Origin: Geobacter metallireducens GS-15
GTDB lineage: Bacteria > Desulfobacterota > Desulfuromonadia > Geobacterales > Geobacteraceae
Direction of reading: 5' to 3'
DNA: 32,000 bases
NCBI RefSeq assembly: GCF_000012925.1
Contig: NC_007517.1
Coordinates: 2,370,001 to 2,402,000 of the forward strand
The translations under genes and the position numbers were made by a program. A model generated the notes under the pieces. The model was not told the origin of the DNA, searched no databases, and saw only the letters and a program-made list of their open reading frames with translations. This document shows, piece by piece, positions 18,194 to 27,145 of this stretch. Numbering within the stretch: the stretch's first letter is position 1; every line of letters starts with the position of its first letter.

Positions 18194-18937
18194 ATGAGTG
18201 AATCAGCCTACAGCATTACAGAAGCCATCCGGCAACTTCCAAGAAACATCAAGGCGTCCATCTCCCGCCGCGGAGAAGGAACCGTGGAACAGGAACAGGC
18301 CGCGGCGGTATTCGGCAACATGTTCCTCCATCTCCATCCGGTGCGGGTCCATGTGAACTCCCTGCGCGCGGGATACACCTTCGGGCTGGGACTGATCTCC
18401 TTCTACCTCTTTCTCATCCTGGTCGCCTCGGGGCTGCTGCTGATGTTCTATTACACCCCCTCCACCGAGCTGGCCTACCGGAACATGAAAGACCTCGAAT
18501 ACGTCGTCACCTTCGGCGTGATCCTGCGCAACGTCCACCGCTGGTCGGCCCATGCCATGGTCGCCTTTGTCTTCCTCCACATGTGCCGGGTCTTCTATAC
18601 CGGCTCCTACAAGGCTCCCCGTGAATTCAACTGGGTCATCGGCGTCTTCCTGCTGCTCGTGACGCTCTTCCTGAGCTTTACCGGCTACCTCCTCCCCTGG
18701 GATCAGCTGGCCTTCTGGGCCGTTACCGTCGGCTCCAATATCGCCGGCTACATGCCCGTACTCGGGGATTACATCCGCTTCCTGATGCTGGGGGGGAATG
18801 AGGTCGGCCAGATGGCGCTCCTGCGGTTCTACGTGCTGCACGTGGTGGCGCTCCCTCTCCTTGCCGCCACCCTGCTGGGAGTTCACTTCTGGAGGATCCG
18901 CAAGGACGGTGGCCTGTCACGGCCCAGGAACGACTGA
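18194..18937 (+). CDS. Cytochrome b6-type subunit (N-terminal four-helix core of cytochrome b)
   Basis: Haem-ligand His pairs [17 protein letters not shown] (13 residues between) and [17 protein letters not shown] (14 between). [15 protein letters not shown] 18194 with GGAGA 6 nt upstream is preferred over the ORF-track start at 18095. Confidence 0.85.
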
Positions 18938-18978
18938 GTCCGGCAGGAGACGCGAGAGACAACTGAGGAGGTTCAGAC

Positions 18979-19500
18979 ATGCAAGCAGCTAAAAAAGAAG
19001 AGATATTCCCGAAGGACCCCAACAAGACCTATTCCCTGATGGCAATCGTCGACGGCGACTCCTTCCAGGTGGAAAAGGGTCCCGAAGACACGGTGCAGAG
19101 CTGGCCGCACCTCATGGTGCGCGAGCTGGGGCTGTTCCTGCTGGTCCTCGCCGTGATCATGGGTGTTTCCCTCATCTTCAACGCCCCCCTGGAGGAAGCG
19201 GCCAATCCCCAGCACTCCACCAACCCGGCCAAGGCCCCCTGGTATTTCGTCGGCATCCAGGAACTGGTGAGCTATTCGGCACTTCTGGGGGGGATCGTAA
19301 CCCCGGCCATCATCGTGGTCACGCTTCTGCTCCTCCCCTATCTGGACCGGAACCCCAAGGGGACCGGCGTCTGGTTTTCCCGGGACCGGCGGGTCGCCAC
19401 TATCCTGTTCACCGTCTTTGTCGTAGCCATGCTCATTCTTATCGTAATCGGACAGTTCCTGCGGGGACCGAACTGGCATCTGTACCTGCCGTGGCAATGA
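18979..19500 (+). CDS. Cytochrome b C-terminal part / subunit-IV-like (PetD-like)
   Basis: 173 aa with three hydrophobic helices. Qo-loop motif NPAKAPWYFVGIQEL. RBS GAGGAGG upstream. Confidence 0.8.
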   Translation: MQAAKKEEIFPKDPNKTYSLMAIVDGDSFQVEKGPEDTVQSWPHLMVRELGLFLLVLAVIMGVSLIFNAPLEEAANPQHSTNPAKAPWYFVGIQELVSYSALLGGIVTPAIIVVTLLLLPYLDRNPKGTGVWFSRDRRVATILFTVFVVAMLILIVIGQFLRGPNWHLYLPWQ

Positions 19501-19536
19501 CACGTTGAAACAACACCCCTTGAAAGGAGAAGTGAT

Positions 19537-20055
19537 ATGAGTTCCGAAAACAGCACCGGCGCAACGATTCTCCCCTTCAGAACCTCCGATGACGTGGTGG
19601 ACGAGGATCGCAGAGGCTTCGTGAAAAAGATGGCGCTGACGGCCCTCACCGTGGGAGTCGGGGGAGCTGCCATCCAGAGCGCCCGTTTCTTCAAGCCCAA
19701 TGTGCTCTACGAGCCCTCAAAGGCTTTCAAGGTGGGCGAGCTGAGCAAGTTCCCCATCGGAAGCCGCATCGTCATCGAAGGCCGGGGGATCGAGATCGTC
19801 AGAGAACGGGACGGCATGCACGCCATATCCCTTGTCTGCACCCACCTGGGATGCCTCATAAAGCCCGTGGAGAACGACCCCGACACCGGGTACATGTGCC
19901 CCTGCCACGGCTCCACCTTTACCCTTACGGGTGGAGTTCTAGGGGGCCCCGCCCCGAAGGATCTCCCCTGGTACGAGATGTACATGGACAATACCGGGGC
20001 TCTCGTGGTGGACACGTCCAAGGTGAACCACAAACGGACCAAACTCGCAGTCTGA
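19537..20055 (+). CDS. Rieske [2Fe-2S] subunit with twin-arginine signal
   Basis: DRRGFVKKMALTALTVG Tat signal/anchor. CTHLGC and CPCHGS cluster-binding boxes. Confidence 0.9.
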   Translation: MSSENSTGATILPFRTSDDVVDEDRRGFVKKMALTALTVGVGGAAIQSARFFKPNVLYEPSKAFKVGELSKFPIGSRIVIEGRGIEIVRERDGMHAISLVCTHLGCLIKPVENDPDTGYMCPCHGSTFTLTGGVLGGPAPKDLPWYEMYMDNTGALVVDTSKVNHKRTKLAV

Positions 20056-20070
20056 GACAGGAGCAAACCC

Positions 20071-21009
20071 ATGGAGGATAAGCAGATGGAAAAGGCAGTT
20101 TCACGCAAGCTTACATTATTCTGCGTCATCTGCGGGCTGGCCGTACTGGTCCTTATGGGAGCAACGGTGATCCGCGACGGGGAGCGGGAATGGAAGCATT
20201 ACCAGACCCAATACCGGGAGATGCTTCTGAAGATGATCAAGAAAGAGGACAACCCGACCTTCTATCAGCGGGTTGAGGAGATGAAGCCGGAGATCCGGCA
20301 GATCGTCGTCGATGAATGGAAGACGGTGGACCGCTGCACCACCTGTCACCTGGGGATCGAAGACCCCCTCTTTGCCAACGCCAAGCAGCCGTTCACCACC
20401 CACCCCAATCCGGAGCTGCTGAAGCACCATCCGGTGGATAAGTTCGGCTGCACCATGTGCCATGGCGGCCAGGGGCTGGCCACAACCTACAATGGCTCCT
20501 CCCACCAGCCCATCGACAACTGGCCCATCACCCTGGTGTCCAAGGGGCTCATGCAATCCCGGTGCGGCTACTGCCACAAGGATTTCGAGGCCATCAAGGC
20601 GGACCGCCTCATCAAGGGGCGCGAACTCTACAAGGAGATGCACTGCGCCGGCTGTCACCAGATCGACGGCCAGGGGGGGAACGTGGGGCCGGACCTGAGC
20701 AACTTCGCCGACAAGGACCCCAGCAACTTCTCCTACGAGAGCATAGAGGGCCCCCACTCCAAGCAGACGTGGGTCATCGAACACTTCAGGGATCCCAAGC
20801 GGGTCAGCCCCGGCACCCCGATGCGCACCTACGCCATGAACGACGACCAGATCGAATGTCTCGCGAGCTATGTCCTGAGCCTGACCCAGCGGGGTTTCTC
20901 GCGCCCCTACAGCACCAAGGTGAAGGCTGACTTTGTGCCGCACAAGGTGGACGAATACGTCCCCGAACCCGAATTGTCCGACTCCGCGGACGACGCCGAA
21001 AGCAACTAG
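20071..21009 (+). CDS. Membrane-anchored tetrahaem c-type cytochrome
   Basis: Four CxxCH motifs (CTTCH, CTMCH, CGYCH, CAGCH). N-terminal hydrophobic anchor LTLFCVICGLAVLVLMGATVI. The last haem lies in a class-I-like domain (CAGCHQIDGQGGNVGPDL). ATG 20086 is an alternative start. Confidence 0.85.
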   Translation: MEDKQMEKAVSRKLTLFCVICGLAVLVLMGATVIRDGEREWKHYQTQYREMLLKMIKKEDNPTFYQRVEEMKPEIRQIVVDEWKTVDRCTTCHLGIEDPLFANAKQPFTTHPNPELLKHHPVDKFGCTMCHGGQGLATTYNGSSHQPIDNWPITLVSKGLMQSRCGYCHKDFEAIKADRLIKGRELYKEMHCAGCHQIDGQGGNVGPDLSNFADKDPSNFSYESIEGPHSKQTWVIEHFRDPKRVSPGTPMRTYAMNDDQIECLASYVLSLTQRGFSRPYSTKVKADFVPHKVDEYVPEPELSDSADDAESN

Positions 21010-21061
21010 ACAGCCGGGCGATCATTGACGCTGGAGAGACTTTCCAATGAGGAGAGAGAGA

Positions 21062-21445
21062 ATGAATCGGAAAACCTCGTTAATAGTGGCGGCAGCACTG
21101 GTCTTCGGGATGCTCTTGCCGGGCTCCGGGGCACTGGCGCAGGAACCGCCGAAAATGCCCTACGTCTTCGCCATGTACTGCGTGATGTGCCACAAGGAAG
21201 GGGTTCAGATCGGCCCCATAGGCATCTACGACATGATGTCGAAGAGCGGCAACCCGTTGCACGAGCAGCTTATCCGCAACAATACCCGCTTCGGCTACAA
21301 CGCCATGCCTGCCTTCAGGATGTCGGAGGTAAGCCCGAAGGAGATGAACGCCATCGTGGCCTACCTGAAGGACGTGGCGGCATACCGCAAGACCCATCCC
21401 GGTTACAAGCCGGTACCGGCGAAGGAAGGAGGGGCCAAAAAATGA
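21062..21445 (+). CDS. pcmG: Monohaem c-type cytochrome, p-cresol methylhydroxylase cytochrome (beta) subunit
   Basis: Sec signal MNRKTSLIVAAALVFGMLLPGSGALA. Single CVMCH. NAMPAF Met-ligand region. Lies immediately upstream of the flavoprotein subunits, as in pchC-pchF. The symbol is from memory of the G. metallireducens cluster. Confidence 0.75.
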   Translation: MNRKTSLIVAAALVFGMLLPGSGALAQEPPKMPYVFAMYCVMCHKEGVQIGPIGIYDMMSKSGNPLHEQLIRNNTRFGYNAMPAFRMSEVSPKEMNAIVAYLKDVAAYRKTHPGYKPVPAKEGGAKK

Positions 21446-21861
21446 TGGAAACGGGAAGAAGAGGGTTTTTCAAGCAGATTTTCACGGCCGTGGCCGCAGT
21501 AGCCGCAACAGGGGCCACAGCAGCCGCCCCCCGCAGGGCCGAGGCCTCCGTGGCGGGACAGATCAAAGGGGTGTGCCTCTACGTCCCGAGCCTTGGCAAA
21601 GCGACTGATTTTGTCGAGATGATGAACAAGAACGCCCCCGGATCCTGGACGGTTCACCCCCTCACCGGATCCCTGAGCGAGCATTACTTCACCACCAGGA
21701 ACCTCTACGAGGAGGCCCGTGGAAGCGCCAACACCTTTGTGGGGGTCGTGGATCCGGCAACCTTTGCCATCGTTCACGAAGCGATCGTCGATTGCGGCGG
21801 CAGCTTCCACTACACCACCTACGAAGACCGGAACCGGGTCACGTTTTCCGCACAGCTGTAA
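21442..21861 (+). CDS. Small protein with twin-arginine signal, unknown function (occupies the position of pchX between the cytochrome and flavoprotein genes)
   Basis: MMETGRRGFFKQIFTAVAAVAATGATAAAPRRAEA is a good Tat signal (RRxFFK, h-region, AxA-like site). ATG 21442 overlaps the upstream TGA (ATGATG). The longer listed ORF from 21025 is a frame overlap with the cytochrome gene. Confidence 0.6.
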   Translation: MMETGRRGFFKQIFTAVAAVAATGATAAAPRRAEASVAGQIKGVCLYVPSLGKATDFVEMMNKNAPGSWTVHPLTGSLSEHYFTTRNLYEEARGSANTFVGVVDPATFAIVHEAIVDCGGSFHYTTYEDRNRVTFSAQL

Positions 21862-21877: not shown

Positions 21878-23473
21878 ATGAGTCGTTTCATTGCACTTCC
21901 CAAAGGAGTGACAGAAGCAGCCTTCGCCAAGGCCATCCAGGAATACCGGGCGCTCCTGGGCGAGGACCGGGTCCGCACCGATCCGGCTTCCCTGCAGTCC
22001 TACATGAAGATCATGATCCCGGAGACCGAGGAACTGCACAAGCCTTCGGCCGCCATGTACCCCAGAACGGTCAAAGAGATCCAGGCCATCGTGGCCATAG
22101 CCAACAAGTACAAGACCCCCCTCTGGACGGTGAGCACCGGCAAGAACATGGGATACGGTTCCGCTGCCCCGGCCACCCGGGGGCAGATCGTCCTCGACCT
22201 GAAGACCATGAAGAAGATCATCCATGTGGATGAGGAGCTGGGGTACTGCCTGGTGGAGCCGGGGGTGACCTACTACGACCTGCAGGAGTACTTCAGGAAG
22301 CACAAGATGAACCTCTGGGTCGATGTCCCCGCCCCCTCGTCCATGGCCAGCCCGATGGGGAACACGGCAGACCGGGGGGTGGGCTACACCCCCTACGGCG
22401 AGCACTTCCTCGTTTCCTGCGGCATGGAGGTGGTCCTGGCCAACGGCGACGTGGTCCGCACCGGCACGGGGGGCGTCCAGAACTCCACCAGCTGGCAGGC
22501 CAGCAAATGGGGCTACGGACCGTATCTCGACGGCATTTTCACCCAGTCCAACTACGGCATCATCACCAAGCTCGGGGTCTGGCTCCTGAAGGGCCCTCCT
22601 CCCGGCGGCTACATGCCGTTTCTCATGAAGTTCCCCAAGGTGGAGATGCTGGGCGACATCGTCAAGACCTTCATGCCCCTGCGCCTGGCCCAGATCATCC
22701 CCAACGCCTGCGTCGTGGTCAACGCCGGCTGGGAGGCGGCCGGCTACTTCACCTACGACAAGAACGGCAAGGGAACCAACCGGAGCAGCTTCTACAAGGG
22801 GAAGGGAAGCCTCCCCCCCAAGGTGTTCCAGGAGATCATGGACAAGTTCAAGATCGGCGCCTGGAACTTCTACGCCGCCCTCTACGGCTCCCCCGAGCAG
22901 GTGGCCCTCAACTGGAAATACGTCTCGGGCGCCTTCAAGGCCAAGTTCGGCAATCAGGTCCAGATCATCACCGAGAAGGAAGCCAAGGACGACCCCATCT
23001 TCGAGTACCGCCGCCAGCTGATGATGGGGGGGAGCACCCTGCAGGAGTTCGGCCTCTACAACTGGCGTGGAGGGGGCGGTTCCATGTGGTTCGCCCCGGT
23101 TGCGGCCGCCAGACCCTCCGAGTGCGACAAGCAGATGAGGGTTGCCACCGACATCCTCAACAAGCACGGCTTCGACTACGTCTCCGAGTTCATTGTGGGG
23201 TGGCGCGAAATGCACCACATCATCGACCTCCTCTACGACCGTACCCAGCCGGACGAGATGCACCGGGCCTACCAGTGCTTCGATGAGTTGTTGAGGGTGT
23301 TTTCCAAGAACGGTTACGGGACCTACCGCACCAACACGGCCTTCATGGAAAAGGCTGCCAACACCTACGGGCCCGAGATGCGGAAGCTTCATCGGACCCT
23401 GAAGAAGGCGCTGGATCCCAACAATATCCTGGCCCCGGGCAAGTCGGGCATCAACCTGGATATTCCCCTGTAG
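21878..23473 (+). CDS. pcmI: p-Cresol methylhydroxylase flavoprotein (alpha) subunit, VAO/PCMH family
   Basis: 531 aa. FAD-binding PCMH-type domain (PSAAMYPRTVKEIQAIVAIANKYKTPLWTVSTGKNMGYGSAAP). GLYNWRGGGGSMWFAPV with Tyr394 (23057-23059). TYRTN Tyr483-Arg484. RBS GAGGAGG. The symbol is from memory. Confidence 0.85.
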   Translation: MSRFIALPKGVTEAAFAKAIQEYRALLGEDRVRTDPASLQSYMKIMIPETEELHKPSAAMYPRTVKEIQAIVAIANKYKTPLWTVSTGKNMGYGSAAPATRGQIVLDLKTMKKIIHVDEELGYCLVEPGVTYYDLQEYFRKHKMNLWVDVPAPSSMASPMGNTADRGVGYTPYGEHFLVSCGMEVVLANGDVVRTGTGGVQNSTSWQASKWGYGPYLDGIFTQSNYGIITKLGVWLLKGPPPGGYMPFLMKFPKVEMLGDIVKTFMPLRLAQIIPNACVVVNAGWEAAGYFTYDKNGKGTNRSSFYKGKGSLPPKVFQEIMDKFKIGAWNFYAALYGSPEQVALNWKYVSGAFKAKFGNQVQIITEKEAKDDPIFEYRRQLMMGGSTLQEFGLYNWRGGGGSMWFAPVAAARPSECDKQMRVATDILNKHGFDYVSEFIVGWREMHHIIDLLYDRTQPDEMHRAYQCFDELLRVFSKNGYGTYRTNTAFMEKAANTYGPEMRKLHRTLKKALDPNNILAPGKSGINLDIPL

Positions 23474-23499: not shown

Positions 23500-25062
23500 A
23501 TGAGTCGTTACCTAGCGCTGCCAAAGGGCGTTACCGAAGCAGCCTTTACCAAAGCGATCACTGAGTATCGCACCCTTCTGGGAGAGGGGCGCGTCCGCAC
23601 CGATCTGGCATCCCTCAGTCCGTACATCGTCAACTCCATTGCCGAAAGCGATTCATTGCACACTCCCTCGGCAGCCATCTACCCGACGACCACCAGGGAA
23701 ATCCAGTCCATTGTCGGCATTGCCAACAAGTACAAGACGCCGCTCTGGACTGTCTGCAACGGGGAAAACGAGGGGTACGGCTCCTCGGCGCCGGCAACCG
23801 CCGGGCAGATAGTGCTCGATCTGCGAAACATGAAGAAGATCATCGAGGTCGATCGGGAGCTGGGCTACTGTCTGGTGGAGCCCGGCGTGACCTATGCCGA
23901 CCTCCAGAACTACCTCACCAGCAACAAGATCAACCTCTGGCTCGATGCTCCGGCACCTTCGGCCAATGTCAGCATCCTCGGCAATATCCTGGAGCGGGGG
24001 AGCGGCTACACCCCCTACAGCGAGGATTTCCTCTTTTCCTGCGGCATGGAGGTGGTGCTGGCCAACGGGACTGTCCTCAAGACCGGCATGGGGGGCATCC
24101 CCAATTCCACCAGCTGGCAGGTCTTCAAGTGGGGGTTCGGCCCCTATGTGGACGGGCTCTTTTCCCAGGGGAACAACGGGATCGTCACCAAGGTCGGCGC
24201 ATGGCTGATGGGAGCACCGCCTCCGGGTGGCTACAAGCCTTTCTGCATCAGGTTCCCCAAGAACGAGATGCTGCCCAACATCATCAAGCCGCTCATGTTC
24301 CTGCGCCAGGCCCAGATCGTTCCCAACGCCTGCGCCCTGGTCAACGCCGGATGGGAAACGGCCACCCGTTTCGCCAATGACCGGAGGAACAACGGCCGTT
24401 TCATCAACACGGCGAACCGGGTCATTCCCGCCAACAAACTGGTCAACCGCAACGTTGGTGCCTGGAATCTCTACGGGGCCGTCTACGGCTCTCCCGAGCA
24501 GGTGGCCCTGAACTGGATGTACGTCTCCGGCACCTTCAAACAGGCCTTCGGTAACAAGATCAGCATCATCACCGAGAATGAGGCCAAGGGGGACCCGGCC
24601 TTCGAGTATCGCAAGCAGCTCATGATGGGGGGGGTCACCAGCCGCAATCCCCTGGACAGCTGGCGCCCCGGCTACGGCTCCATGAAGTTCGCCCCCACGG
24701 CGGCGGCACGGCCGGGCGAATGCGCCCAGCAGGCGAAGGTGGCGGCAGAGATCATCAACCGGCACGGTTTCGACTACCTCAGCGAGTTCAGCTTCTTCTG
24801 GTACGACGCCCGCCACACCGTCGATCTCCGTTTTGACCGCACCAGGCCCGAGGAGATGAAACGGGCCCATGCCTGCTTCAACGAGCTCATCAGCGCCTTC
24901 GCCAAACATGGCTGGGCGGTGGGCCGCACCAACACCGCCTTCATGGACAAGGTGGCCGATTCCTACGGCCCGGCAAAGCAGAGGCTCAACCGCACCATCA
25001 AGAAGGCCCTGGACCCCAACAACATCCTGTCGCCGGGCAAATCAGGGATCACGGCAGGGTAA
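23500..25062 (+). CDS. pcmJ: Second PCMH flavoprotein-type subunit (alpha-prime), divergent at cofactor and substrate residues
   Basis: 520 aa, colinear with 21878-23473 from the first residues (MSRYLALPKGVTEAAF vs MSRFIALPKGVTEAAF). Reads PLDSWRPGYGSMKFAPT and AVGRTN at the two key sites. The symbol is from memory. Confidence 0.85.
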   Translation: MSRYLALPKGVTEAAFTKAITEYRTLLGEGRVRTDLASLSPYIVNSIAESDSLHTPSAAIYPTTTREIQSIVGIANKYKTPLWTVCNGENEGYGSSAPATAGQIVLDLRNMKKIIEVDRELGYCLVEPGVTYADLQNYLTSNKINLWLDAPAPSANVSILGNILERGSGYTPYSEDFLFSCGMEVVLANGTVLKTGMGGIPNSTSWQVFKWGFGPYVDGLFSQGNNGIVTKVGAWLMGAPPPGGYKPFCIRFPKNEMLPNIIKPLMFLRQAQIVPNACALVNAGWETATRFANDRRNNGRFINTANRVIPANKLVNRNVGAWNLYGAVYGSPEQVALNWMYVSGTFKQAFGNKISIITENEAKGDPAFEYRKQLMMGGVTSRNPLDSWRPGYGSMKFAPTAAARPGECAQQAKVAAEIINRHGFDYLSEFSFFWYDARHTVDLRFDRTRPEEMKRAHACFNELISAFAKHGWAVGRTNTAFMDKVADSYGPAKQRLNRTIKKALDPNNILSPGKSGITAG

Positions 25063-25092
25063 CGTTCAATGAGCATTTGGAGGAAACAATCC

Positions 25093-26016
25093 ATGAATCT
25101 ATCAAAATCCCTGATACTGAGCATCTGCCTCACGACCATCGTCTTCATCCACTCGGGAGCCTGGGCCTTCAATTCCAGTTCCTTCAACGGCACGGCCGAC
25201 TTTTACGCCGGAGCCGCTCCGCCGCCGGGACTCCATCTCATCGACTACAACGTCTTCATGGATATCAAGAAGATAGAAAACAAGGGACAGGGACTGGTGG
25301 ACGGCAAAGGGACCCTGACCGCCATAGCCTTCCGCCCCATCTATGTCTCGGAAAAGGGGCTCTTCGGCGGCAACTTCCTCATGCACTCCATCATTCCCCT
25401 CCTGTCGGTGGAGGCCGACGTGAAGGCAAACACGCCCGGCGGGCAGATCACCGTGCAAGGCCATGACGGAGGGCTTGGCGATGTCTATTTCGGGGTGGGG
25501 ATGGCGTGGCACACCCCGGTCTGGCACTGGCTGACGGTACTGGACGTCATCACCCCCACCGGCAGCTTCGATCCGAACAAACCCGTCAATGCCGGCAACA
25601 ACGCCTTCATCATCGAACCGGTTGTGGCCGTTACCGGCATGTTCCCGAACGGCATGGAGGTGAATGCCAAGTTCATGTACTCCTACCACACCAAGAACAG
25701 CGACTATGTGGAAGCCGGAACGGGTATCAAGGGGTATCAGACGGGACAGGCGTTCCACATGGACTACAACGTGAACTATGCCGTGACCAAGGATCTGAAG
25801 CTCGGTGTTACCGGCTGGCTCTGGCAGGGACTGGAGAACGACCGGATCGGCGGGCAGAAACGTGCCGACACCAAGGACTTCGAATTCTCCATGGGGCCGG
25901 CAGCCCGATACCAGAACGGCAAGTTTGCCGTCATCGGCAAGTATGTGCTGCCGGTGGCCGCCGAGAACCGTATCGAAGCCAACCAGCTCTGGATCGATCT
26001 GGTCTATTCATTCTAG
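25093..26016 (+). CDS. Outer-membrane beta-barrel channel, MetA-pathway / phenol-degradation OMP family, copy 2
   Basis: Signal peptide MNLSKSLILSICLTTIVFIHSGAWA. GAAPPPGLHLIDY, IIEPVVAVTG, C-terminal LVYSF. GGAGG (25079-25083) lies 9 nt before ATG 25093, which is preferred over ATG 25069. Confidence 0.7.
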   Translation: MNLSKSLILSICLTTIVFIHSGAWAFNSSSFNGTADFYAGAAPPPGLHLIDYNVFMDIKKIENKGQGLVDGKGTLTAIAFRPIYVSEKGLFGGNFLMHSIIPLLSVEADVKANTPGGQITVQGHDGGLGDVYFGVGMAWHTPVWHWLTVLDVITPTGSFDPNKPVNAGNNAFIIEPVVAVTGMFPNGMEVNAKFMYSYHTKNSDYVEAGTGIKGYQTGQAFHMDYNVNYAVTKDLKLGVTGWLWQGLENDRIGGQKRADTKDFEFSMGPAARYQNGKFAVIGKYVLPVAAENRIEANQLWIDLVYSF

Positions 26017-26056
26017 GGATTTCACAGGGATTGACACTCTTCCGGAGGGTACAACG

Positions 26057-27145
26057 ATGGACGACAAGAAAATACTGATAATCAATCCAGGCTCCACCTC
26101 GACGAAAATCGGTGTCTTTACCGAAGGGAAGATGATCGTCAATCAATCGGTGAAGCATGACGACGAGGAACTGAGGAAGTTCCCCACCATCTGGGACCAG
26201 TATGATTTCCGCCGGGATGCAATCTTCAAGGTGCTCGCGGACAACAACCTCTCCATGGGGGAAATTGACGCCATCGCCTGCCGGGGCGGCAACGTCAGGC
26301 CCCTTCCCGGCGGCATCTACCGGGTCTGCCCGAAGATGATCGAGGACATGAAGAGCGGCATCTATGGCGGCCATCCCATCAATGTGGGGGGGCTGGTGGC
26401 CTTCGACCTGGGGAACCAGTTCAATATCCCGGTCCTCACCGCCGATCCCCCCATGACCGACGAACTCTGCGCCTCGGCCCGGTACAGCGGCATTCCCCAG
26501 ATCACCAGACAGAGCAGTTTCCACGCCCTCAACCAGAAGGCCACTGCCAGGAAGATCGCCGCGGAACTGGGAAAGAAATACGACGAAATCAACCTGATCG
26601 TCGCCCACCTGGGTGGCGGAATTTCGGTGGGCGCCCACCGCAGAGGAAAGATCATCGATGTGAATAACGCCCTTGACGGCGACGGCCCCTTCTCCCCGGA
26701 GAGGGCCGGCTCCCTTCCGGCGGGCGACCTGGTGAAGCTCTGCTTCAGCGGCGAGTACACCAAAAAAGAGGTTCTCAAGCTACTGACCGGAAAGGGAGGA
26801 CTGTTCGCCTATATGGGAACGACCGACGCCGTCGAAATCGAGAAGAGAATCGCCCATGGTGGGCAGAAGGCGGCGGAGGTCTATGAAGCGATGATCTACC
26901 AGGTGGCCAAGGAGATCGGTGCCAGCGCGGCGGTCCTTGAGGGAGATGTTGACGCCATCGCCCTCACCGGCAGCCTGGCCTACTCGAAAAAGCTCGTGGA
27001 AAGCCTGAGCAGGAAGATTTCCTTCATCGCCCCGGTGCTCCTCAATCCGGGCGAAAACGAAATGGAAGCCCTGGCCGACGCGGCCATGAGGTATTTCAAC
27101 AATGAAGAGGCCCTCTCCGTCTACCACCAGGACAAGGCGGCATGA
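26057..27145 (+). CDS. Butyrate-kinase-family (ASKHA) acyl kinase, copy 2
   Basis: MDDKKILIINPGSTSTKIGVF... Same conserved blocks as 2028-3107. Roughly four residues in five look identical by eye. ATG 26057 with GGAGGG upstream. The listed ORF start at 25805 overlaps the porin gene. Confidence 0.85.
   Translation: MDDKKILIINPGSTSTKIGVFTEGKMIVNQSVKHDDEELRKFPTIWDQYDFRRDAIFKVLADNNLSMGEIDAIACRGGNVRPLPGGIYRVCPKMIEDMKSGIYGGHPINVGGLVAFDLGNQFNIPVLTADPPMTDELCASARYSGIPQITRQSSFHALNQKATARKIAAELGKKYDEINLIVAHLGGGISVGAHRRGKIIDVNNALDGDGPFSPERAGSLPAGDLVKLCFSGEYTKKEVLKLLTGKGGLFAYMGTTDAVEIEKRIAHGGQKAAEVYEAMIYQVAKEIGASAAVLEGDVDAIALTGSLAYSKKLVESLSRKISFIAPVLLNPGENEMEALADAAMRYFNNEEALSVYHQDKAA

Follow-up and report, generated by a model that had tools for sequence, protein, structure and literature searches.

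p-Cresol methylhydroxylase (PCMH) of Pseudomonas putida is a soluble alpha2-beta2 enzyme in which two copies of the flavoprotein PchF make up a homodimer that has two active sites, and Glu380 of PchF is an active-site residue. The substrate phenolate is activated by a Tyr, Tyr, Arg set, and His436 and Tyr473 serve as mobile gate residues of the substrate path through the subunit interface (PMC5646868). In the family of PCMH and vanillyl-alcohol oxidase (VAO), the dimer interface holds a substrate corridor and a shared chamber (PMC5646868; PMC7617285), and in PCMH an Ala-Pro pair contacts flavin N5 (PMC7617285 Table 1). A natural family member, nsVAO of Novosphingobium (9FFK), lacks the linking residue, binds flavin adenine dinucleotide (FAD) non-covalently and is active (PMC7617285). 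We examined a PCMH-type gene at 23500-25062 on the + strand of a 32,000-nucleotide window of the Geobacter metallireducens GS-15 genome (NC_007517.1, positions 2,370,001 to 2,402,000). Its 520-amino-acid product, recognized from the open reading frame, the Pfam domains FAD_binding_4 and FAD-oxidase_C and the match to 1DII, is very probably the alpha-prime (PcmJ-type) subunit of the Geobacter-type PCMH, a pseudoenzyme paralogue that partners the active alpha subunit encoded immediately upstream.

The gene stands directly behind its Tyr394-bearing paralogue in the bc-linked pcm cluster, and its product is most probably the PcmJ alpha-prime already described for GS-15 (Peters et al. 2007; Johannes et al. 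2008, J Bacteriol 190:6493). Two preprints that cite Johannes 2008 locate the covalently bound FAD at Tyr394 of PcmI and treat PcmI and PcmJ as a pair of PchF homologues, and citing texts present the bc-type complex as the proposed electron acceptor. The labels in the literature clash, as bioRxiv 10.64898/2026.01.30.702948 names pcmI the ‘alpha-prime subunit’ with Tyr394. By sequence, Tyr394 is found only in the upstream 531-residue gene. This upstream gene is the one reportedly called alpha in the 2008 study. The soluble part of the Geobacter enzyme was reportedly purified as alpha/alpha-prime/beta2 with one FAD, covalently bound on alpha Tyr394, and none on alpha-prime, which is said to have been considered catalytically inactive for that reason; only one of the two haems is reportedly reduced by p-cresol. 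An inactive, FAD-less alpha-prime is already known, as the central point reportedly published in 2008; the modest additions made here are comparative and consist of the replacement signature across the clade, the invariable presence of alpha alongside alpha-prime and the estimates of selection. A literature search found no open text stating the FAD content of alpha-prime.

The residues of both window genes were compared with PchF. A phmmer search of alpha-prime against all PDB sequences returned PchF of P. putida (1DII/1WVE) as the top match (E = 2e-153), with an alignment that pairs LDSWRPGYGSMKFAP of alpha-prime with LYNWRGGGGSMWFAP of PchF, and GWAVGRTN with GYAVYRVN. This offset sets Asp386 on Tyr384, Gly475 on Tyr473, Arg476 on Arg474 and Tyr93 on Tyr95. 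The alpha gene encodes Tyr394 (TAC, 23057-23059) and the Tyr483-Arg484 pair (TACCGC, 23324-23329). At the position of the FAD-linking tyrosine (PchF Tyr384, alpha Tyr394), re-reading of the sequence together with the PchF alignment gives Asp386 in alpha-prime (GAC, 24655-24657, + strand), and at Gly475-Arg476 (GGCCGC, 24922-24927, + strand) the phenolate tyrosine is lost and the arginine retained. The phenolate triad Tyr95/Tyr473/Arg474 is incomplete in alpha-prime, which has Tyr93 and Arg476 but Gly475 at the Tyr473 position. An earlier note on this DNA, made from the letters alone, had reported the loss of the covalent-FAD and phenolate tyrosines from the second paralogue; the coordinates, residues and motifs that it quoted for both paralogues were exact on re-reading, and the 1DII alignment bears out both losses.

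The replacements extend beyond these two tyrosines. The loop C86-N87-G88-E89-N90-E91 (23755-23772, + strand) stands in place of the catalytic S-T-G-(K/R)-N-(M/L/F), with Tyr93 retained just downstream. Arg382-Asn383 (24643-24648, + strand) aligns to PchF Glu380, and neither residue is acidic; HMMER puts Glu380 on Arg382, and MAFFT puts its alpha counterpart, Glu390, on Asn383. The segment F432-F433-W-Y-D-A437-R438-H-T-V-D-L-R444 (24793-24831, + strand) carries five clade-fixed changes, Val to Phe, Gly to Phe, Met to Ala, His (PchF His436) to Arg and Leu to Arg. Retained in alpha-prime are Tyr93, Arg476, the Ala152-Pro153 pair, Arg166, Tyr170, Glu175 and Asp436, along with the majority of the glycine motifs in the FAD domain. 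Compared with PchF, alpha-prime is therefore alike in its full-length fold (45% identity by structural alignment, template modelling (TM) score 0.92), in the equivalents of Tyr95, Arg474 and Ala154-Pro155 and in the small cytochrome c gene nearby, but departs from it in having other residues for Tyr384, Glu380, His436 and Tyr473 and Glu for Arg91. A further point of contrast is the homodimeric make-up of PchF.

To place these residues among relatives, 120 proteins were gathered by a protein-collection search, and the aligned sequences split cleanly into a catalytic class (n = 71) and an alpha-prime class (n = 62, comprising 49 long cluster representatives and 13 short members). The 71 catalytic sequences carry GLY-N/R-WRGGGG, Y-x-x-YR and STG(K/R)N-x-GYG; the 62 alpha-prime sequences carry PLD-x-WR-(A/P)-GGG, W-(A/G)-x-(N/S/G/T)-R and (C/Y)-(N/G)-GENEGYG. 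In a maximum-likelihood tree alpha-prime forms one clade (Shimodaira-Hasegawa-like approximate likelihood ratio test 100, stem length 0.24) adjoining the alpha sequences of the Geobacterales, a placement that points to a single duplication. Among 169 columns conserved at 95% or above in the 71 catalytic relatives, alpha-prime shares the consensus at 144 and departs from it at 25, the latter including the equivalents of Tyr384, Glu380, Tyr473 and His436. The new alpha-prime residue, in several cases a charged one, is fixed at a level of at least 90% in 13 of these 25 columns, and 158 columns are invariant across the 49 diverged long alpha-prime clusters.

Column by column, the residue at alpha Tyr394 (PchF Tyr384) is Asp in 48 of the 49 long alpha-prime sequences and Tyr in all 71 catalytic ones, so that Asp386 is not a matter of chance. 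Similarly, Lys/Arg89 (PchF Arg91), Lys or Arg in 71/71 catalytic sequences, is Glu in 61 of 62 alpha-prime members (48/49 long, 13/13 short). The column of alpha Glu390 (PchF Glu380), in the MAFFT alignment, holds Glu in 71/71 catalytic sequences and Asn, Ser, His or Asp in alpha-prime. Both alpha His446 (PchF His436) and alpha Leu452 are replaced by Arg in 49/49, as Arg438 and Arg444 respectively. Also replaced across the alpha-prime clade are alpha Val440-Gly441 (by Phe-Phe), alpha Trp404 (by Arg or Lys), alpha Ser86-Thr87 (by Cys/Tyr and then Asn/Gly) and the hydrophobic residue 91 (by Glu). At alpha Tyr483 (PchF Tyr473) alpha-prime has Asn (36), Ser (5), Gly (4) or Thr (2), with the neighbouring Arg476 invariant. 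The loss of the phenolate tyrosine thus holds clade-wide, but the glycine read by the earlier note is specific to the lineage, the clade having mostly Asn. The same is the case for its ‘disrupted Gly loop’: GYG is true of GS-15 and one near-identical sequence, but all other alpha-prime sequences have GGG.

Both kinds of gene are currently annotated ‘4-cresol dehydrogenase’, and the signature PLD-x-WR with G-E-N-E-GYG and A-R-H separates alpha-prime from catalytic PCMH genes. Its core, Asp in the Tyr384 column with Glu in the Lys/Arg89 column, was derived here and is not a published definition; it is near-invariant in the 62 members, and the GS-15 gene carries it. Within the class, position 86 (Cys86 of alpha-prime, 23755-23757), Ser in 71/71 catalytic sequences, is only Cys (31) or Tyr (18) in long alpha-prime. 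The short alpha-prime subclass (497-504 amino acids; P0066-P0080; loci L034, L035 and L039) is about 20 residues shorter in one cap-domain loop and partners a distinct alpha subclade with the motif FTYYNWRG.

A tyrosine or histidine elsewhere at a flavinylation site of the second paralogue had been set beforehand as the finding that would overturn the earlier note. None was found. Mapped through L409/L418 of nsVAO (PMC7617285 Table 1) and our alignment, the column of the FAD-linking VAO His422 is Ser394 in alpha-prime. This column, which holds the histidine of VAO and EUGO, corresponds to PchF Ser392 and alpha Ser402 and is Ser in 44 of the 49 long alpha-prime sequences, and alpha-prime is accordingly not of the histidyl-FAD type. 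Members of the short subclass have Tyr (6), Phe (4) or Leu (2) there. In the ‘GYG’ of GS-15, Tyr392 stands two positions away from the His422 column, and only GS-15 and the one near-identical sequence have it. When columns were scanned for a His, Cys or Tyr that alpha-prime conserves and the catalytic class does not, only position 86 (Cys/Tyr) and Cys249 came up, neither of them near the linking sites.

The distribution of the pair was followed in 151 genomes of the order. PCMH flavoprotein genes occur in 15 of them, in 7 of 35 genera, and alpha and alpha-prime are both present with open frames in 15/15, each time within one cluster; a sixteenth genome (G113) was left out, as its single match within the E-value cut was to something else, at 36% identity. 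In 400 further genomes across the phylum there was no PCMH-type match at E <= 1e-120. The main clusters have 40-180 bases between alpha and alpha-prime, and some genomes hold two or three clusters. Where surroundings were compared, the gene order from the GltD-like gene through the channel gene is the same as in the window in 8 other genomes, and wherever the compared DNA of a related cluster extends far enough, bc-type genes stand 5' of beta, alpha and alpha-prime. Genome G115 is arranged differently, with alpha at the cluster head beside the GltD-like iron-sulfur (FeS) gene and a short alpha-prime directly after the twin-arginine translocation (Tat) signal gene; its two contigs with loci L039 (G115:C266) and L040 (G115:C60) appear to form one rearranged cluster.

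Selection was estimated by the Nei-Gojobori method on the closer genome pairs. The ratio of nonsynonymous to synonymous substitution rates (dN/dS) is mostly 0.06-0.2 for alpha-prime versus 0.03-0.08 for alpha, and dN is 2-6 times higher in alpha-prime than in alpha. Averaged over columns, the entropy in 12 matched genomes comes to 0.25 in alpha and 0.51 in alpha-prime. The relaxation in alpha-prime is concentrated at residues 41-80, 281-320, 381-400 and 441-480, and the flavinylation loop at 381-400 has an entropy of 0.00 in alpha versus 0.57 in alpha-prime. Residues 161-220, 261-280 and 321-380 of alpha-prime remain conserved, and the stretch 161-180 corresponds, by our own numbering offset, to VAO 183-197, which contains residues of the subunit-interface path. 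Alpha-prime is under purifying selection and is a maintained protein whose own active site has been freed from constraint.

The overall fold was assessed in an AlphaFold (AF2) model of alpha-prime, which has a mean predicted local distance difference test (pLDDT) score of 86.9, a TM score of 0.92 to 1DII_A and an intact two-domain VAO/PCMH fold. Several candidate indicators were rejected. Dips in pLDDT at alpha-prime 86-100, 161-180 and 191-220 were considered as a sign that the FAD site is empty, but in an alpha control with the same alignment the dips were equal or deeper. The structures 9FFK and 9FGE (501 amino acids), considered as representatives of the short alpha-prime subclass, are in fact of a catalytic-type Novosphingobium oxidase. 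Overall charge as a clue to docking was set aside because the isoelectric points overlap, at 8.8-9.1 for alpha and 8.5-9.5 for alpha-prime.

In its cluster alpha-prime is accompanied by a catalytic alpha, by one cytochrome c gene and by the genes of a bc-type complex. It probably goes back to a single duplication of the catalytic alpha gene. It has kept the whole two-domain fold and, we infer, the dimer-interface segments, and has lost its own active-site chemistry: linking Tyr to Asp, phenolate Tyr to Asn or Gly, Glu380 gone, gate His to Arg and Lys/Arg89 to Glu. It probably stands in for the second alpha of an alpha2-beta2 enzyme, giving alpha/alpha-prime/beta2 with one FAD, in which only the alpha-beta half would turn over p-cresol. 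As the substrate corridor runs at the dimer interface, alpha would need a partner protomer, and alpha-prime could supply one without a second active site. Such an asymmetric dimer may suit the docking of one catalytic half on the membrane bc-type complex, and the Asp, Glu, Arg and Phe residues fixed in the clade might occupy the vacant flavin pocket or, alternatively, make up a surface on which that complex docks. The pair would be a case in which a flavoenzyme homodimer became an active/dead heterodimer retained by selection, with the dead half placed in a proposed membrane-bound p-cresol oxidising complex.

The proposal of the earlier note that the second paralogue is a non-catalytic partner without the usual flavinylation or substrate binding gains support, as far as residues can tell, from the combined loss of the Tyr384, Glu380, His436 and Tyr473 equivalents together with Glu89. 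It is this combination, not the loss of the linking tyrosine alone, that points to a dead site, since nsVAO is active without a linker. Several points weigh against a pseudoenzyme. The glycine motifs, the Ala-Pro pair, Tyr93 and Arg476 are intact and could still allow weak non-covalent binding of FAD or a nucleotide, and a natural relative without the linking residue is active (9FFK, PMC7617285). The roles of alpha-prime at the dimer interface and in docking are ones that we infer. The absence of FAD from alpha-prime is taken as reportedly given in the 2008 abstract. As a rival reading, alpha-prime could still be a flavoenzyme that holds FAD non-covalently, like nsVAO or the Y384F variant of PchF, acts on another substrate or at a lower redox potential, and lost its cofactor in purification. 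Purifying selection on the gene would fit such an enzyme, as would the retained FAD-domain glycine motifs, Ala152-Pro153, Tyr93 and Arg476 and the precedent of nsVAO. Similar to alpha-prime, nsVAO (9FFK, 9FGE) lacks both the Tyr384-type residue, with Leu there, and the His422-type residue (PMC7617285 Table 1). Contrary to alpha-prime, however, nsVAO retains STGKN and the Tyr-Arg pair, and it is an active homodimer that binds FAD non-covalently and has no active paralogue as a partner. Alpha-prime has lost the counterparts of Tyr384, Glu380, Tyr473 and His436 all together, the charge at position 89 is reversed, two bulky Phe residues take the place of Val-Gly at 432-433, and the flavinylation loop invariant in alpha has been released, as its entropies show. 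The complex is also said to contain a single FAD. We therefore regard a non-covalent flavoenzyme as very unlikely.

Two further explanations concern what the replaced residues do. Alpha-prime may have gained a positive function, in which Asp386, Glu89, Arg438 and Arg444 make a site for the bc complex, for electron relay by the second cytochrome or for tuning the corridor shared with alpha. The 13 of 25 changed columns fixed to a new residue, several of them charged, agree with this, and two of the changed positions, those of His436 and Tyr473, border the entrance to the interface chamber. The pair also stands in a bc-complex cluster wherever the compared DNA extends that far and is in none of the genomes sampled elsewhere in the phylum. 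The fixed charges could equally be a salt-bridge network that stabilises an empty flavin pocket, however, and a gain of function in this broad sense appears distinctly unlikely to us. A more specific form takes the clade-fixed Asp386, Glu89, Glu91, Arg438, Arg444 and Arg/Lys396 as a new site that makes alpha-prime an adaptor between the alpha-beta half and the bc complex, or a relay through the second haem, the one not reducible by substrate. This would, if true, explain why the pair lies in a bc-linked cluster in every cluster examined; we offer it tentatively, as improbable. That alpha-prime is a decaying, functionless duplicate is suggested by an evolutionary rate 2-3 times that of alpha and by its lost catalytic residues. 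This explanation is contradicted by the selection data, with dN/dS well under 1, by frames intact in 15/15 genomes and by 158 invariant columns among 49 diverged clusters, and alpha-prime reportedly co-purifies in the enzyme, which makes decay extremely improbable. The pseudoenzyme partner subunit remains the reading that we prefer.

The catalytic alpha (PcmI-type) flavoprotein of 531 amino acids is encoded at 21878-23473 (+ strand; Pfam) with all catalytic motifs intact, and is 62% identical to alpha-prime over 525 columns. The two genes lie in tandem on the + strand, each ATG start is preceded by a GAGGAGG ribosome-binding site, and both products lack a signal peptide. From the 5' side towards alpha, the order is a 10-helix membrane protein, a GltD-like FeS flavoprotein, a split cytochrome b, a Rieske protein, a tetrahaem cytochrome c, a monohaem cytochrome c and a 139-amino-acid Tat protein; a gene for a MetA-type outer-membrane channel follows alpha-prime on its 3' side. 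The bc-type complex genes, for the split cytochrome b, the Rieske protein and the tetrahaem cytochrome c (four CxxCH), span 18194-21009 (+ strand) and were recognized by Pfam and motif count. The candidate beta subunit is a monohaem c-type cytochrome of 132 amino acids (21047-21445, + strand) with one CxxCH at residue 45, weak matches to cytochrome c families and a hydrophobic signal-like segment at its N-terminus. It is the sole monohaem cytochrome gene of the cluster and is present in all related clusters.

Between beta and alpha lies the gene for the 139-amino-acid twin-arginine protein (TGRRGFFK; 21442-21861, + strand), which is given here as context. It overlaps the stop of the cytochrome gene by 4 bases and is kept in all related clusters, and searches of Pfam and NCBIfam with its product gave no match. 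Further 3', the longest open reading frame of an acetate-kinase-like gene (25805-27145, with GTG at 25805) overlaps the MetA-type channel gene (25069-26016) by ~210 bases. Homologues in other genomes, like the family match, start further 3', suggesting that the true start is probably later.

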